A DNA stretch of 64,000 bases from a virus. Lineage: Duplodnaviria; Caudoviricetes. The position numbers and the translations under genes were made by a program. Under the pieces are notes generated by a model. That model saw only the letters and a program-made list of their open reading frames with translations, was not told the origin of the DNA and searched no databases. Below are positions 406 to 61,547 of this stretch, piece after piece (position 1 is the stretch's first letter; the number at the start of each line of letters is the position of its first letter). The stretch spans positions 64,001 through 128,000 of IMG/VR virus record IMGVR_UViG_3300037067_006336; one strand, written 5' to 3'.

Positions 406-888
406 TTATACCTTCCTTACATGATGGTTCAAACGGTACGGGTTACCATCCCTAGATACGAATGACACGCTGCTAACCATCATGAAATCTTTCCTATTTA
501 CGGGTGGTATGAAAAGGGTACCGTGCATGCATATACCGCAGTACACGACCTCGATTATATCATCTATCACGTCGTGTAAATCCTTGAATATGTTGTAACC
601 ACCCACCATCATGATGTTAGCGTGTGATGCCAACACTGTCTTGTTGAACGATGACACGTGACAAACACCACCGACGGTAACAGGGCATTGAACATCACCC
701 ACCATTGTGATGTCACATGATGTTCTGAGGTTTTCCATCAGGCAAGAATAAGGGGGTGATAGTAGTACCATGTTTCCCCTGCATACCCTTGTTAAGAGGG
801 ATAACATGATGTCACTTGAACATGGCAACGGTAATCCCCTGGATAATACCGAACCAGGTTCGTCCCGTGTTATTACCATCCTTACCAT
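406..888 (-). CDS. hypothetical protein
   Basis: 160-aa ORF tightly packed between co-oriented neighbours. Confidence 0.55.
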   Translation of the reverse strand: MVRMVITRDEPGSVLSRGLPLPCSSDIMLSLLTRVCRGNMVLLSPPYSCLMENLRTSCDITMVGDVQCPVTVGGVCHVSSFNKTVLASHANIMMVGGYNIFKDLHDVIDDIIEVVYCGICMHGTLFIPPVNRKDFMMVSSVSFVSRDGNPYRLNHHVRKV

Positions 889-28539: not shown

Positions 28540-29097
28540 ATGATAACATTCTTCTTACCGTTGAAACCATCAAGCGTTAGACCGAAGAGGTCAGTTATCC
28601 TAACACATATAAGGTCGGTTATAGGGCGTGATTTCGACCATGTTATACACCCGGTGGATATGTTCATCGATAACGACGTACTTGGGACGGTGTCAGGGAA
28701 AGACGTGTGCATCTTCCACCCGCTGGTGGCGCATGATAACCTTGACACGATAAAATTACTCAAGAACAAGGTGGTAGTGTTGGAGAAGCCGACGATACTT
28801 GTCCAGAAAGAATCCAGGCAATTCAACCCGTTCAACGAGAACAAGGCACTTATACATGACATGATGGTATTATACATCAACCCGGGCATGTTAGATATTA
28901 CCAACGATGAATACAAGATAGTTGCTAACCGGGAGAATTTTATACTTTCAAATGATGACTTTCGTAATTACGTCGAGAGCAGGGGAGTTGTAACGGTTAA
29001 CGGGGGGATTGTTGAACCCGGCAGGATAAATGAATTTTCCCTGGCATCTGCCAGGGCTAACTTACCAAATATAATATCAGATGATAGAAGAAAATAA
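28540..29097 (+). CDS. hypothetical protein
   Basis: ATG 28540 just after clamp loader stop. Confidence 0.55.
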   Translation: MITFFLPLKPSSVRPKRSVILTHIRSVIGRDFDHVIHPVDMFIDNDVLGTVSGKDVCIFHPLVAHDNLDTIKLLKNKVVVLEKPTILVQKESRQFNPFNENKALIHDMMVLYINPGMLDITNDEYKIVANRENFILSNDDFRNYVESRGVVTVNGGIVEPGRINEFSLASARANLPNIISDDRRK

Positions 29098-29764
29098 TAA
29101 CTGGGAGCGTAAGATTGACATGTTCACGTGGGGTCTATCAGGTTCAGGCAAGGATACTATCTGTAACGCGTTAAAAAAACGCGGTGTCTTAACGTTGAGG
29201 ATAGCACGTACGATCAAACAGGTTATATGCGAGAAGTATGACATCACGATGGAAGAACTCGATCATTTGAAGAGGTTCAACCCTGCTTTCAGGGAATTAC
29301 ACCGTGATGTACAGGTTTACCTGGAAACGCTTGATAAGTCGGTATCAGGTGAAGATGTTGTTGCCGAGGGACCGATGAACCGGTTAAAACAGTTGGTAAA
29401 CTACACCGCTTTCGATTACGACATGTTACCAGCATCCACGCTCATGTCTTTCCCCAGGGTCATAGTTGATGTCAGGAAGATCGACGAGGTGAGGATGTTG
29501 TTGAAATCAGGTTTCCATGGCATCTTCCTTACCCGTATACCAACCGAGCACGTGATACAAGGGCACCCGACAGAGGTTTACCTTCCATTACATGAAGTCA
29601 TGATGGAGTTCGAATCCCAGTACCCTTATCAAATACACCTGATTGACAACAGAGTAACTAGTGAACCAATACCCTTCACCTGTATGCCGGAAATTACTTG
29701 CATAGATTCAAGTGCAAACAAGTTGATCAATGCAGCTTTCAATGTTATTAATAATATCAAGTAA
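29081..29764 (+). CDS. deoxynucleoside monophosphate kinase-like P-loop protein
   Basis: GLSGSGKDT, IA..IK, VIVDVR..E. Confidence 0.7.
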   Translation: MIEENNNWERKIDMFTWGLSGSGKDTICNALKKRGVLTLRIARTIKQVICEKYDITMEELDHLKRFNPAFRELHRDVQVYLETLDKSVSGEDVVAEGPMNRLKQLVNYTAFDYDMLPASTLMSFPRVIVDVRKIDEVRMLLKSGFHGIFLTRIPTEHVIQGHPTEVYLPLHEVMMEFESQYPYQIHLIDNRVTSEPIPFTCMPEITCIDSSANKLINAAFNVINNIK

Positions 29765-55892: not shown

Positions 55893-56161
55893 AAAGGAAA
55901 AAGAACCCGAACAGGAATTTACTCCTCGTGGAAGTGAAGATAAAGAAATACATGAATAAGGATGTTATCAAGGATATGTTGACGAGCGTTAAAAACAATA
56001 CCAGTATGTTTGCTTCAAGAGGTTATAATGTGGTGCTCATACCATCTTCCAGGAACATGATAACCATGGTTGACGGATGCATAAGATCCAGGGGCGATCA
56101 CGAGTTGTTCAAGAAGATGACATTGCTTATGAAAAACAAAAAATCAAAGGTAAGATGTTAA
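55889..56161 (+). CDS. hypothetical basic protein
   Basis: 90-aa ORF. Confidence 0.5.
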   Translation: MKRKKNPNRNLLLVEVKIKKYMNKDVIKDMLTSVKNNTSMFASRGYNVVLIPSSRNMITMVDGCIRSRGDHELFKKMTLLMKNKKSKVRC

Positions 56162-57138
56162 CGAAAGAACAGGAAAAAGAATTAGAGTGTTTTAACATTG
56201 TACTAAAGAACCGTGCCGGTAACGTGGAGAACGAATACGCGTGGATGTTAACCGACGTGTTGTTAACCGGGAAGGAAAGGAGTAACAGGACAGGTATAAA
56301 AACACTGGTAAAGCACGGGAACTTCATGAAGCTTGACGTTACCGGTGGCAAGTTCCCCGTGTTAGCAGGCAAGAAGATGTTCCCCCACATGGCGTTCACC
56401 GAGATGCAATGGTTCATGAACGGGAGGACGGACATCAAGTACATGAACGATCGTGGGGTAAGATACTGGGATAAATGGGTGCTACCGGACGGGACTATAG
56501 GGAAATCATACGGTCACCAGTTCCGTGATTTCAACGGTGTTGACCAGCTATCGAGAGTGGTGGATATCATGACAACAGACATCGACTCCCGTCGTAACAT
56601 ACTATCATTATGGAACCCTGCCGACCTCCACGACATGGCGCTTGAACCATGTGTTGACAGGTACATGGTAGAGTGTGACCCGGTAAACCAATCGGTTATA
56701 GAGGTTGACCTTCACGTCACGCAGAGATCGTGTGACATGTTCCTGGGTGTTCCTTACGACTTCATGCTTGTTACATCATTCATCAACGTCTTGTGCGCAC
56801 ATGCCAGTATGATCACGTCGAAATATTACACCCCGAGGACAATCCACTACACGTTTGATAACTACCACGTGTACGAGAACCAGGTAGATGCATGCATGCA
56901 GTACTTGAGGAACGTGGTAGGGGACAAGGATGGTTGTATCACGAGCAATACCGCGATCATGGGGTTAGACGATATTTACATATGTGGGAAATACCCTTCT
57001 GACGTTGAACTAACCATCGATCACACCCTGGAAGCCATTGGTGCATCATTCGATTTCGAGAAGAAGACATGGGGGTGTCTGAAGTTACGCAACCTCCCCT
57101 CGGTCAACGGTATTATTAAATGTGATGTAGCGGTTTGA
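56155..57138 (+). CDS. thyA: thymidylate synthase family protein (Asn-to-Asp variant; possible dCMP methylase/hydroxymethylase)
   Basis: NRTG, YGHQFR, SRRNILSLWNP, LEPC, QRSCDMFLGVPYD, HVYENQ. Confidence 0.85.
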   Translation: MLTKEQEKELECFNIVLKNRAGNVENEYAWMLTDVLLTGKERSNRTGIKTLVKHGNFMKLDVTGGKFPVLAGKKMFPHMAFTEMQWFMNGRTDIKYMNDRGVRYWDKWVLPDGTIGKSYGHQFRDFNGVDQLSRVVDIMTTDIDSRRNILSLWNPADLHDMALEPCVDRYMVECDPVNQSVIEVDLHVTQRSCDMFLGVPYDFMLVTSFINVLCAHASMITSKYYTPRTIHYTFDNYHVYENQVDACMQYLRNVVGDKDGCITSNTAIMGLDDIYICGKYPSDVELTIDHTLEAIGASFDFEKKTWGCLKLRNLPSVNGIIKCDVAV

Positions 57139-57142
57139 TACC

Positions 57143-57655
57143 ATGGAAGAAATCGATATAAAAATAAACAAGTCAAAGGTTGACCGAGAGTTGAAGTCAT
57201 ACCCCCGTGGAACAATATTCCCATCCATCTATGGAGGTTTCTGGCATAGGGTTTACGGTGGTTTCAAATGGTGTAACGGGGCAACGTTCCCGGGACCAGG
57301 AGGGGACTGGTGCGGGGAGGTGATACTACCATCAGGGTGGTGTTTCATCAACGGTGACAAGTGTAAACCATATGTAATCATGGGTATACACGGGGATAAA
57401 CTCATGATTTGTCATGGTGATGTGATAATACATACACATGTGTCAACGGTCGAACCATACGATAAAGAGGCGTGTAATGTACTGGAGGGAATAGAGAACC
57501 GTTTACATAACCCGCATACGATTGAAACACTGGCTTTTTGTTCAATTTGTGATAAACCTTACGTACTCGGGTTTCATATACAAAACCGCACTTACCTGAA
57601 CACCTTTCTTGATATGTGTCATAACTGTTCGGATGAGGTATTGCACCAAGGGTAA
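57143..57655 (+). CDS. hypothetical protein with Gly/Trp-rich domain and CxxC pairs
   Basis: FPSIYGGFW / FPGPGGDW; CSIC and CHNC. Confidence 0.5.
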   Translation: MEEIDIKINKSKVDRELKSYPRGTIFPSIYGGFWHRVYGGFKWCNGATFPGPGGDWCGEVILPSGWCFINGDKCKPYVIMGIHGDKLMICHGDVIIHTHVSTVEPYDKEACNVLEGIENRLHNPHTIETLAFCSICDKPYVLGFHIQNRTYLNTFLDMCHNCSDEVLHQG

Positions 57656-58420: not shown

Positions 58421-59137
58421 ATGATTTACATGGGTTCCAAGGCTAGGATCAAGAAAGATATCCTCCCCGTCATACTACAACACAGGAAGAATCACAAGCA
58501 GTGGTACGTGGAGCCTTTCACAGGCGGTATGAACGTCATATGTGATGTCCCGGGTAACAGGATAGCGAACGACATAAACCCTTACTTGATATCAATGTTC
58601 AAGGCCTGTTTAGATGGATGGAAACCATGTTATATAACGGAGGAACAATACAAGCATATACGGGATAACAAGGATAATTACCGTCCTGAACTAGTTGGCT
58701 GGGCTGGTTTCTGTTGTAGTTTCGGTTCTAAATTCTTCGGTGGCTACGTCGGTGGAGTACGATTGATTAAACGAGGAGACGGTAGTTTTGGCAAGCGTGA
58801 CGACCAGAAAAATTCATACATCAACTTATCACGCCAACTTGATAAATTACGAGGTGTTGTTATTTTAAACAATGATTACAAGGAATTATTTATACCACCA
58901 AAAAGTATAATATACTGTGACCCGCCATACAAGGGAACCACTGGTTACAAGGTTGATTTCAACCATGTTGAATTCTGGGAATGGGTAAGGGTTAAAACAC
59001 TGGAAGGACACCATGTGTACACGAGCGAGTACGATGCACCACCAGATTTCAAATGCATATGGGAAAAGGAATTAATATCTTCTTTAAGATTTGATGGCAC
59101 TAAATCAACCGAGAAATTATTCGTTTACAATCCTTAA
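58421..59137 (+). CDS. D12-class N6-adenine DNA methyltransferase (Dam-like)
   Basis: YMGSK, YVEPFTGG, NDIN, YCDPPY, SEY. Confidence 0.88.
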   Translation: MIYMGSKARIKKDILPVILQHRKNHKQWYVEPFTGGMNVICDVPGNRIANDINPYLISMFKACLDGWKPCYITEEQYKHIRDNKDNYRPELVGWAGFCCSFGSKFFGGYVGGVRLIKRGDGSFGKRDDQKNSYINLSRQLDKLRGVVILNNDYKELFIPPKSIIYCDPPYKGTTGYKVDFNHVEFWEWVRVKTLEGHHVYTSEYDAPPDFKCIWEKELISSLRFDGTKSTEKLFVYNP

Positions 59138-59147
59138 AAATATTACC

Positions 59148-59606
59148 ATGAAGAATACAATAGTCGTTGACATAGACGGCACGATATCGAATGACTCACA
59201 CAGGAAGCATTACCTTACCGGCAAGGTGAAAAACTGGGAAGCGTACTTCGGTGCTTCTATTCATGATGAACCTGTCAAAGACGTGATCGAACTCGTTAAC
59301 AGGTTGTGGGAATCAGGTATGAACGTGGTATTCTGCACCGGTAGACCTGAATATACCAGGGATATCACGATAAACTGGATATGGGTTCATTTCCCAACAA
59401 GTTTCACGAATGAGATGGAATACTCTTTAATCATGAGACCCAGCGGTAACACCGAGGGTGATGACACGTTGAAAGTGAAGATGCTGGAAGAGGCAGGGTA
59501 TTCACCTGATGACGTGTTATTCGTGATAGATGACAGGAACAGGGTCGTGAAATCGTGGAGGGAAGCAGGGTACACATGCCTGCAACCGGTGGAAGGAAAT
59601 TTTTAA
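59148..59606 (+). CDS. HAD phosphatase (PNK 3'-phosphatase-like)
   Basis: DIDGT, TGR, MRP...D...K, DDR. Confidence 0.85.
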   Translation: MKNTIVVDIDGTISNDSHRKHYLTGKVKNWEAYFGASIHDEPVKDVIELVNRLWESGMNVVFCTGRPEYTRDITINWIWVHFPTSFTNEMEYSLIMRPSGNTEGDDTLKVKMLEEAGYSPDDVLFVIDDRNRVVKSWREAGYTCLQPVEGNF

Positions 59607-60431: not shown

Positions 60432-61547
60432 ATGAGAAAATTAGCCTCGATACAAAGAATCGGAAATTTAGAGCCGATACAAAATGCAGATGTAATTGAA
60501 AAAGCCACGGTACTGGGATGGTATTTAGTGGTTAAAAAGGGTGAATTTTCAATAAATGACTTGTGTGTTTACTGTGAAATTGATTCTATTTTGCCCGAAA
60601 AACCAGAGTTTGAGTTTTTAAAAGATAAGAAGTACAGGGTTAAGACCATTAAACTCCGCGGTCAAATTTCACAAGGTATCTGTTTCCCGCTTTCCATTTT
60701 ACCTGGAAATACAAGGGTGATAGAGGGGTTAGATGTTACAGGGGTACTTGGAATTAAAAAATGGGAACCTTACCAGGATGAACAAAAATGCGTAAGACAA
60801 ACCGCTAAAATAATGTACCCTGGATGGATGCCACGATGGGTTCAAAGGATAGTACATGAATTCAAGTTCGTTAGAGAATATTATCGCCGAAACTCGGGAC
60901 AAAAAAGTTTCCCTTCTTTAATCCCGAAAACTGATGAAACCAGGGTACAGGTTTTGCAATCCTTAATTGATAAATACAAGGGTGTAAAATGTTATTACAC
61001 TGAAAAACTTGATGGTAGTTCCATAACCATTTACCAGATAAACGGGAAGTTCGGGGTTTGCAGCAGGAATATTGATCTAAGACGCGATAAAACAGATAAA
61101 TTCTGGAAAACTGTTTTAGCACACGATTTAGAAAACAAGTTCAAGAAGTATTTCGCTAATGAAAATATCGCGTTACAAGGTGAACTTATCGGTGAAGGGA
61201 TACAAGGTAATAAATATCGTTTAAAAGGTCTGGATATTTATTTTTTCAATGTATTTTTCATAAAAAGATACGAATATGGGAACATTAACGATCTTATTGA
61301 TGTTTGTGAAAAATTACATGAAAAAACCGTACCGGTACTTGATACTTGTTTTGAATTGGTAAATTCCATACCCGAACTAGTGGAATTAAGCAAGGGAACA
61401 AGTAAATTGAATGAAACCATGCGGGAAGGTATCGTTATTCGCCCTCTTGTAGAAATAGAAGACAAGGAAATTCATTGCTAACTAGTTAAAAATAGGGTTT
61501 CATTCAAAAGTGTCAATCCCGAATTCTTACTGAAACACGGGGAATAA
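60432..61547 (+). pseudogene. RNA ligase (DRB0094/Rnl family) interrupted by in-frame TAA before motif V
   Basis: RKLASIQ OB domain, KTDETR, EKLDG, LQGELIG, EGIV; TAA 61479-61481, then LVKNRVSFKSVNPEFLLKHGE. Confidence 0.8.

Follow-up and report, generated by a model that had tools for sequence, protein, structure and literature searches.

An Asp177 thymidylate synthase homologue predicted to methylate dCMP, in a phage that carries two DNA C5-methyltransferases

Results

A thymidylate synthase homologue with altered specificity residues

The window analyzed here comprises 64,000 nucleotides (bases 64001-128000) of a 162-kb IMG/VR phage record, G000, which is estimated to be 73% complete; coordinates without a prefix refer to the window, and those prefixed G000 to the whole record. 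It contains a gene of the thymidylate synthase (TS) family, the features of which are as follows.

56155..57138, + strand: TS-family coding sequence of 327 aa, predicted dCMP C5-methyltransferase (5-methyl-dCMP synthase), identified by PF00303, PHROG 160, AF2 and Foldseek
56650..56652, + strand: TGT codon of the catalytic Cys166, equivalent to E. coli Cys146 (sequence and alignment columns)
56758..56760, + strand: GAC codon of Asp202, which replaces the pyrimidine-specificity residue Asn177 of E. coli (sequence, HMMER and MAFFT columns)
57124..57135, + strand: C-terminal tail Asp-Val-Ala-Val (...CDVAV), like the TS tail (...PVAI/...MAV), by alignment

The 56155-57138 ORF encodes a TS homologue of full length whose fold is predicted with confidence. 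An alternative upstream ATG lies at 56077 (ORF 56077-57138, +); AAAGGTAAG lies ahead of the ATG at 56155, which agrees in position with the starts of homologues and is the likely start. The product matched Pfam PF00303 (Thymidylat_synt) with an E value of 5e-56 (190 bits; cut-off, 24.3) and PHROG 160 "thymidylate synthase" with an E value of 6.5e-64. Among the NCBIfam equivalogs, it scored above the TIGR03284 cut-off (120.4 versus 108.35 bits) and far under those of the NF0024xx models (e.g., 160.9 versus 327). The AF2 model, for which 72 homologues were used as input, had a pLDDT of 95 and a pTM of 0.93, and its best PDB matches in Foldseek were canonical TS over the whole length (TMt, 0.86-0.88), the E. 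coli, Mtb and Elizabethkingia enzymes being among those with a TMt of 0.87. Compared with E. coli TS, the phage protein is extended by a helix at the N terminus and by ~25 residues inserted ahead of the tail. A megablast search of the region against phage records gave no match.

The protein was then compared residue by residue with 119 database homologues and seven references (E. coli ThyA, RB69 td, T4 gp42, RB69 gp48, SPO1 gp29, and the Xp12 and PaMx74 TS homologues) in a MAFFT alignment. The first-pass annotation had reported an Asp at the dUMP-specificity Asn (E. coli Asn177, L. casei Asn229), as well as LEPCV for LPPCH and DNYHVYENQ for GDxHxYxNH, and all of these replacements were seen in the alignment columns. 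Asp202 occupied the Asn177 column and was directly preceded by Tyr201, the counterpart of Phe176; HMMER comparison with PDB TS chains agreed, placing LGVPYD of the phage protein on LGVPFN. LEPCV (56641-56655) aligned with LAPCH/LPPCH, with Cys146 kept, His147 replaced by Val and Ala/Pro144 by Glu, and with Leu, as in TS, at the -3 position relative to the catalytic Cys. FDNYHVYENQ aligned with GGDTHLYSNH, with His207, Tyr209 and Asn211 kept, Asp205 changed to Asn and His212 to Gln. In E. coli numbering, the changes were thus I79Y, A144E, H147V, F176Y, N177D and D205N. The residues kept included those characteristic of the TS superfamily, namely, the catalytic Cys146, the phosphate-binding Arg21, Arg126/127 and Arg166, Glu58, Tyr94, and His207/Tyr209, together with Trp80, Trp83, Leu143, Pro145, Gln165, Ser167, Asp169 and Asn211, while two marks of canonical ThyA were absent, Asn177 (here Asp) and His147 of the PCH motif (here Val, PCV).

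In MetaGPA, virome contigs with and without cytosine modification were best told apart by positions 177 and 147 (PMC8670742), and N177D/N229D mutants of the E. coli and L. casei enzymes methylate dCMP, according to the work of Hardy and Nalivaika (1992) and Liu and Santi (1992) as cited in PMC8670742. The natural Asp177 TS homologue of Xp12 made 5mdCMP in vivo, as did five of the seven virome-derived Asp177 homologues assayed (bioRxiv 10.1101/2024.12.05.627091). In our set, the metagenomic sequences most closely related to the phage protein (P0002-P0013 and others) had the combination of Asp177, Tyr176 and Val/Met147 in common, and across all Asp177 sequences Tyr176 was found in 98/116 and a residue other than His at position 147 in 80/116.

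A separate ThyA-like lineage of Asp177 enzymes

FastTree was run on 252 sequences, namely, 50%-identity representatives of a 1.8-billion-protein library plus references; the deep nodes of the tree are weak. The phage TS homologue fell inside a 97-leaf clade (support, 0.958) that held no reference sequence and, within it, in a nested 48-leaf clade (support, 0.964) that is ancestrally Asp177 by parsimony. Asp177 is both common to the closest relatives and ancestral in the 48-leaf clade, so neither a sequencing error nor a chance change accounts for it. The 48-leaf clade also contained a nested Gln147/Asn177 reversal and a re-reversal, and residue 177 changed at least 3 times in the 48 leaves and 9 times in the 97. 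The comparison with ThyA and dCMP enzymes that the first-pass annotation had proposed recovered an Asp177 clade, but one that lies outside the validated Xp12/PaMx74 clade and nearer to canonical ThyA; RB69 gp48 grouped with T4 gp42 in the outgroup. Identities ran in the same order, at 30-31% to canonical TS, 26-27% to the Xp12/PaMx74 enzymes and 20% (30 bits, BLAST) to T4 gp42.

The phage protein thus belongs to a separate, ThyA-like lineage of Asp177 enzymes, of canonical ThyA type by sequence and structure, in which the cytosine signature has been acquired and conserved. While TS homologues with Asp177 are already well documented from phages and viromes, the phage protein extends the predicted dCMP methylases by a distinct, ThyA-like lineage. 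We know of no member of the 48- or 97-leaf clade that has been assayed, and the lineage is, to our knowledge, without a characterized member. The nearest cultured-phage matches (B40-8, ESh21, ANB28, XacN1, Xenomorph, Bantam and JGB6) were considered as characterized relatives and set aside, as all of them have Phe176-Asn177 and are ordinary TS.

Compared with the dCMP methyltransferase of Xp12 and PaMx74 (EC 2.1.1.54), the phage enzyme shares the TS fold, the catalytic Cys, Tyr176-Asp177, Asp169 and the status of sole TS gene; it differs in having Val147, Trp83, Gln165 and a ...VAV terminus where the former have Pro147, Phe83, Leu165 and ...PEVIE. Canonical ThyA (E. coli; T4/RB69 td) gives its best sequence and structure matches and has the same catalytic, phosphate- and folate-binding residues, Leu143 and closing tail, yet departs from it at Asn177 (Asp in the phage protein), His147 (Val), Phe176 (Tyr) and Ile79 (Tyr). 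The 177/147 signature is the one described for the MetaGPA virome homologues (PMC8670742; bioRxiv 10.1101/2024.12.05.627091).

Nucleotide metabolism genes in the record and its relatives

Several genes of nucleotide metabolism were found in the window and in the rest of the record.

406..888, - strand: weak DHFR-like ORF of 160 aa (PF00186, 23.4 bits versus a cut-off of 25, matching only the C-terminal half of the profile)
29081..29764, + strand: T4-gp1-type dNMP-kinase-like gene, candidate 5-methyl-dCMP kinase (PHROG 139, E 5.4e-10)
G000:129750-132389: ribonucleotide reductase (RNR) large subunit
G000:141133-142098 (L020:13133-14095): DHH/DHHA1 phosphoesterase gene, directly upstream of the deaminase gene
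G000:142110-142655 (L020:14110-14652): dCMP-deaminase-family gene (dCMP_cyt_deam_1) with HAE...PCxxC motifs, 21 kb from the TS gene

The 162-kb record contained no PF00303 gene other than the TS homologue at 56155-57138, and no ThyX was found in that record (estimated 73% complete); a sole PF00303 gene with no ThyX was likewise the state of 17/17 other Asp177-TS phage genomes. Searches for a dCTPase-type enzyme (MazG, PRA-PH, dUTPase_2) found none in the 162-kb record, and no TET/JBP, carbamoyltransferase or glycosyltransferase was present in ~80 ORFs scanned. The search of the rest of the genome called for in the first-pass annotation thus turned up no second TS, no dCTPase and, in the ORFs scanned, no glycosyltransferase; as the record is ~73% complete, a second TS or a dCTPase could sit in the missing part. 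The dNMP kinase that the same annotation had placed at 29081 proved real by its PHROG match, its Pfam DNMK match (E 3.3e-4) being under the cut-off.

One 222-aa ORF (G000:31740-32405, -; L102:1414-2079) was tried as a dCTPase and rejected: its dUTPase-fold match was marginal (23.6 bits versus a cut-off of 22) with no PHROG match, and since the same profile detects nothing in T4, nothing can be concluded from it. The match lies in the C-terminal half of an ORF that is itself inside the structural-gene block, and may represent a dUTPase/dCTPase or a structural trimer domain.

The ORF at 406..888 had no PHROG match and no similarity to the DHFR encoded beside the TS gene in relative L113. A DHFR would recycle the dihydrofolate (DHF) produced by reductive methylation. 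With a dCMP-deaminase-family gene and a putative DHFR-type gene (the latter a match under the cut-off), the phage may in part resemble Xp12; however, the genes for hydrolase, TS, deaminase and DHFR adjoin one another in Xp12, whereas here the deaminase gene is 21 kb off and no pyrophosphohydrolase was found. A tblastn search of the genome with the Xp12 HAD hydrolase, DHFR and neighboring proteins returned nothing useful, with only the deaminase zinc motif matched. Association with a dCMP_cyt_deam_1/MafB19-type deaminase is also a trait of the MetaGPA virome TS homologues and was seen in relative L112, but the deaminase gene on those virome contigs usually lies <3 kb from the TS gene. In L112, the deaminase and DHHA1 domains were fused, in this order, in one 471-aa protein encoded downstream of RNR. 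This fusion and the adjacency of the deaminase and DHH/DHHA1 genes in the phage suggest a functional unit in nucleotide salvage.

Syntenic metagenomic relatives had the gene order topoisomerase IV-A, a 438-aa protein, a ~1390-aa helicase-like protein, a ~550-aa protein, TS and an SbcC-like protein, and their TS genes were all Val147/Asp177. In L113, a clear DHFR gene overlapped the start of the Asp177 TS gene, a coupling that fits a DHF-producing (methylating) enzyme, while the conserved deaminase fits the scheme proposed for Xp12, in which methylated cytosine nucleotides are deaminated and supply thymidine nucleotides (bioRxiv 10.1101/2024.12.05.627091). A search of IMG/VR with the 1381-aa helicase-like protein of the phage as query found no close phage relatives.

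Two C5 cytosine methyltransferases and a Dam-type methyltransferase

Three DNA methyltransferase genes were identified.

58421..59137, + strand: Dam-type N6-adenine DNA methyltransferase, 1.3 kb downstream of the TS gene (PF02086, E 1.5e-15)
G000:132383-133504 (L020:4383-5501), + strand: C5 cytosine DNA methyltransferase 1 (PF00145, E 5e-37)
G000:134142-135272 (L020:6142-7269), + strand: C5 cytosine DNA methyltransferase 2 (PF00145, E 3e-39)

The Dam gene is context only and lies outside the predicted 5-methyl-dCMP pathway. The two C5 methyltransferases are paralogous (68% identical, divergent in the target-recognition region) and look intact, with motifs I, IV (PC), VI (ENV) and VIII present; their genes directly follow the RNR gene, with a 156-aa ORF between them. 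They were absent from the corresponding interval of the syntenic relative L112 (±10-kb flanks were covered for the relatives). Of the IMG/VR genomes ≥40 kb in length, 0/17 with an Asp177 TS and 8/29 with an Asn177 TS encoded C5 methyltransferases (Fisher p = 0.019, with relatedness ignored). They were also absent from the Xp12, PaMx74, T4 and RB69 genomes, so that the phage differs from Xp12 and PaMx74 in having two. The co-occurrence of an Asp177 TS with two DNA C5-methyltransferases is the single unusual feature here.

Discussion

The gene product is probably a folate-dependent deoxycytidylate C5-methyltransferase, i.e., a TS acting on dCMP, a specificity that is read from one residue plus covariation. 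Counting against this reading are the closer identity to canonical TS than to the Xp12/PaMx74 enzymes, outside whose clade the protein lies, its score above one NCBIfam TS equivalog cut-off (TIGR03284, with the NF0024xx cut-offs far out of reach), the DHFR match under the cut-off, the lack of a dCTPase in the record and the two C5 methyltransferases, which point to the incorporation of much unmethylated cytosine. The first-pass annotation had suggested an enzyme for 5-methyl- or 5-hydroxymethyl-dCMP; retargeting to dCMP and the methyl product are supported by our data, while the hydroxymethyl product is disfavored by the absence of its signature residues. The ternary complex of T4 dCMP hydroxymethylase defines this signature: the -3 position relative to the catalytic Cys is Asp/Glu, where TS has Leu; an interacting Ser lies two residues ahead of the catalytic-base Tyr (Ser-x-Tyr); Val stands in place of Trp83; and the C-terminal tail is lacking. 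Hydroxymethylases release THF where TS releases DHF (PMC6400193). In TS, the tail seals the folate site for hydride transfer (PMC6400193). The phage protein has Leu163 at the -3 position, Gly-Lys-Ser-Tyr with Lys at the Ser position, Trp83 and a ...DVAV tail. Flavin-dependent 5-hydroxy-dCMP synthases are marked by D169N, as described in a 2026 paper on 5-hydroxycytosine (PMC13326640), and this mark is absent, too, since QRSCD is retained and Asp194 corresponds to Asp169. The retention of Leu143, Trp80/Trp83, Asp169 and the tail, together with the absence of both signatures, argues for methylation rather than hydroxymethylation, and the residues that the published rule assigns to a dCMP C5-methyltransferase (PMC13326640, PMC6400193) are all found: Asp202, a hydrophobic -3 residue (Leu163) and Asp194.

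Judging from the conserved residues and published chemistry, Cys166 would attack C6 of dCMP, with Asp202 reading and protonating the N3/N4 face of the cytosine, after which the methylene of 5,10-methylene-THF would be passed to C5. The exocyclic methylene would then be reduced by hydride from THF, yielding 5-methyl-dCMP and dihydrofolate, without hydration to the hydroxymethyl; reduction in place of hydration is predicted from the retention of Leu163, Trp105/Trp108, Asp194 and the closing C-terminal tail. More speculatively, the dNMP-kinase-like enzyme might phosphorylate 5-methyl-dCMP, and the deaminase might convert the pool of methylated cytosine nucleotides, in part or for the most part, to thymidine nucleotides, a fate that has been proposed in Xp12.

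A still-working TS (dUMP to dTMP), or an enzyme of dual specificity in which Asp177 is tolerated and ordinary cytosine is methylated only at specific sites, would be in keeping with the retention of every TS catalytic and folate-binding residue and of the tail, with canonical TS as the nearest characterized relatives, and with the position of the gene as the sole TS gene in the record; the two C5 methyltransferases and Dam, which imply unmodified substrate cytosines, and the repeated flips of residue 177 between Asp and Asn (at least 3 in 48 leaves) point the same way. Nevertheless, we regard it as unlikely, because an ancestral Asp177 that is kept across the clade with covarying residues at 147, 176 and 79 is unexpected for a neutral change, because a single change moves the specificity of E. 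coli and L. casei TS to dCMP, as cited in PMC8670742, and because the natural Asp177 enzymes assayed so far make 5mdCMP (bioRxiv 10.1101/2024.12.05.627091).

A dCMP hydroxymethylase like T4 gp42, which would supply 5-hydroxymethyl-dCMP for an hmC DNA that is possibly decorated further, is less probable still. Although T4 gp42 has the TS-family fold with Asp at the specificity position, and the Glu two before the catalytic Cys (LEPC) gives the phage protein the same local motif as RB69 gp48, this Glu144 also occurs in many Asn177/His147 sequences of canonical type and thus is not a hydroxymethylase mark, and the phage protein has neither the acidic -3 residue nor Ser-x-Tyr, keeps Trp83 and is not tail-less (signature in PMC6400193). 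The BLAST match to T4 gp42 reached only 20% identity and 30 bits, the ~80 ORFs scanned contained no glycosyltransferase, carbamoyltransferase or TET gene, and the DHFR gene coupled to the TS gene in L113 also speaks against this reading. The combination of Asp177 and LEPC could equally suggest a flavin-dependent 5-hydroxy-dCMP synthase of the RB69 gp48/DLP3 gp80 type, which we consider highly improbable given that Asp194 is kept, that RB69 gp48 joins T4 gp42 in the outgroup, and that no arabinosyl- or glycosyltransferase genes were seen (~80 ORFs scanned for glycosyltransferase).

If the enzyme is a dCMP methylase, what becomes of its product is a further question, on which the C5 methyltransferases bear. 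Were every cytosine to enter DNA as 5mC, these enzymes would be left without a substrate; two of them, with no dCTPase found, lead us to expect partial 5mC incorporation or a role mainly in thymidylate supply. We accordingly rate complete replacement of cytosine as rather unlikely, even given a dCMP methylase, and partial incorporation, or a mainly thymidylate-supplying role via the deaminase, as more likely. The suggestion in the first-pass annotation that the phage modifies its DNA thus holds at the level of an enzyme retargeted to dCMP, while wholesale modification is doubtful in view of the two C5 methyltransferases and Dam and the lack of a dCTPase. The presence of a dCMP-deaminase-family gene makes a methylate-then-deaminate route to thymidine nucleotides possible (bioRxiv 10.1101/2024.12.05.627091). 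It is tentatively conceivable that the TS homologue and the deaminase form such a methylate-first route (dCMP to 5-methyl-dCMP to dT nucleotides), with phage DNA containing mostly ordinary cytosine that is protected site by site by the two C5 methyltransferases and Dam. A deaminase that accepted both dCMP and 5-methyl-dCMP would render the order of the two steps nearly neutral, which would explain the repeated Asp/Asn flips at position 177 within one clade.

An Asp177 TS homologue is a marker of phages making 5-substituted cytosines, and this has a bearing on restriction evasion, on the sequencing and cloning of phage DNA and on enzyme sourcing. The automated label "thymidylate synthase" probably gives the wrong substrate for the phage gene, and with its two C5 methyltransferases the phage offers an unusual test case of whether such TS enzymes always mean wholesale 5mC DNA or may serve thymidylate supply.

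Palindrome avoidance and insertions around the TS gene

Avoidance of palindromes (restriction sites) was tried as a proxy for unmodified cytosine and discarded, as the fully substituted controls were equally avoidant. In the phage genome, the observed/expected ratio was 0.52 for GATC (z = -27) and 0.60 for GGCC, TCTAGA was seen 0 times versus 34 expected, and GACGTC 2 times versus 45. The share of C/G-containing 6-mer palindromes with a ratio below 0.5 was 15% in the phage, 13% in Xp12, 18% in PaMx74 and 13% in T4, and since the three latter show the same level of avoidance, the test does not discriminate. The strong underrepresentation of GATC contrasts with the Dam-type methylase gene of the phage and its local GATC/TCATGA arrays.

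Downstream of the TS gene and in the early-gene block, the following were observed.

57143-57655: Cys/His-rich ORF of 170 aa, starting 4 nt after the TS stop; no Pfam or PHROG match
59091-59606: stand-alone HAD phosphatase of the polynucleotide-kinase (PNKP) type
60432-61481: RNA ligase (PHA02142 OB + RNA_ligase), adjoining the HAD phosphatase
G000:138456-139706 (L020:10456-11703): reverse transcriptase gene in the early-gene block (PF00078, E 4.6e-19)
G000:144763-145821 (L020:16766-17821), - strand: IS-type DDE integrase in the early-gene block, on the opposite strand (rve, E 1.4e-13)

The ORF at 57143-57655 was not conserved beside the TS gene in the relatives. The HAD phosphatase and the RNA ligase probably form an RNA/tRNA repair module. 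They lie in a stretch that also contains Dam and small ORFs and that, relative to L112 and L113, is an insertion separating the TS and SbcC-like genes. The DDE integrase is probably part of an insertion sequence in the phage genome. Mobile elements also sit near the TS gene in the relatives: an IS605 OrfB/TnpB-like gene in one (L017:12770-13984) and, ahead of RNR, a LAGLIDADG homing endonuclease in another (L112:15098-16039). The surroundings of the TS gene appear to form an insertion hot spot.
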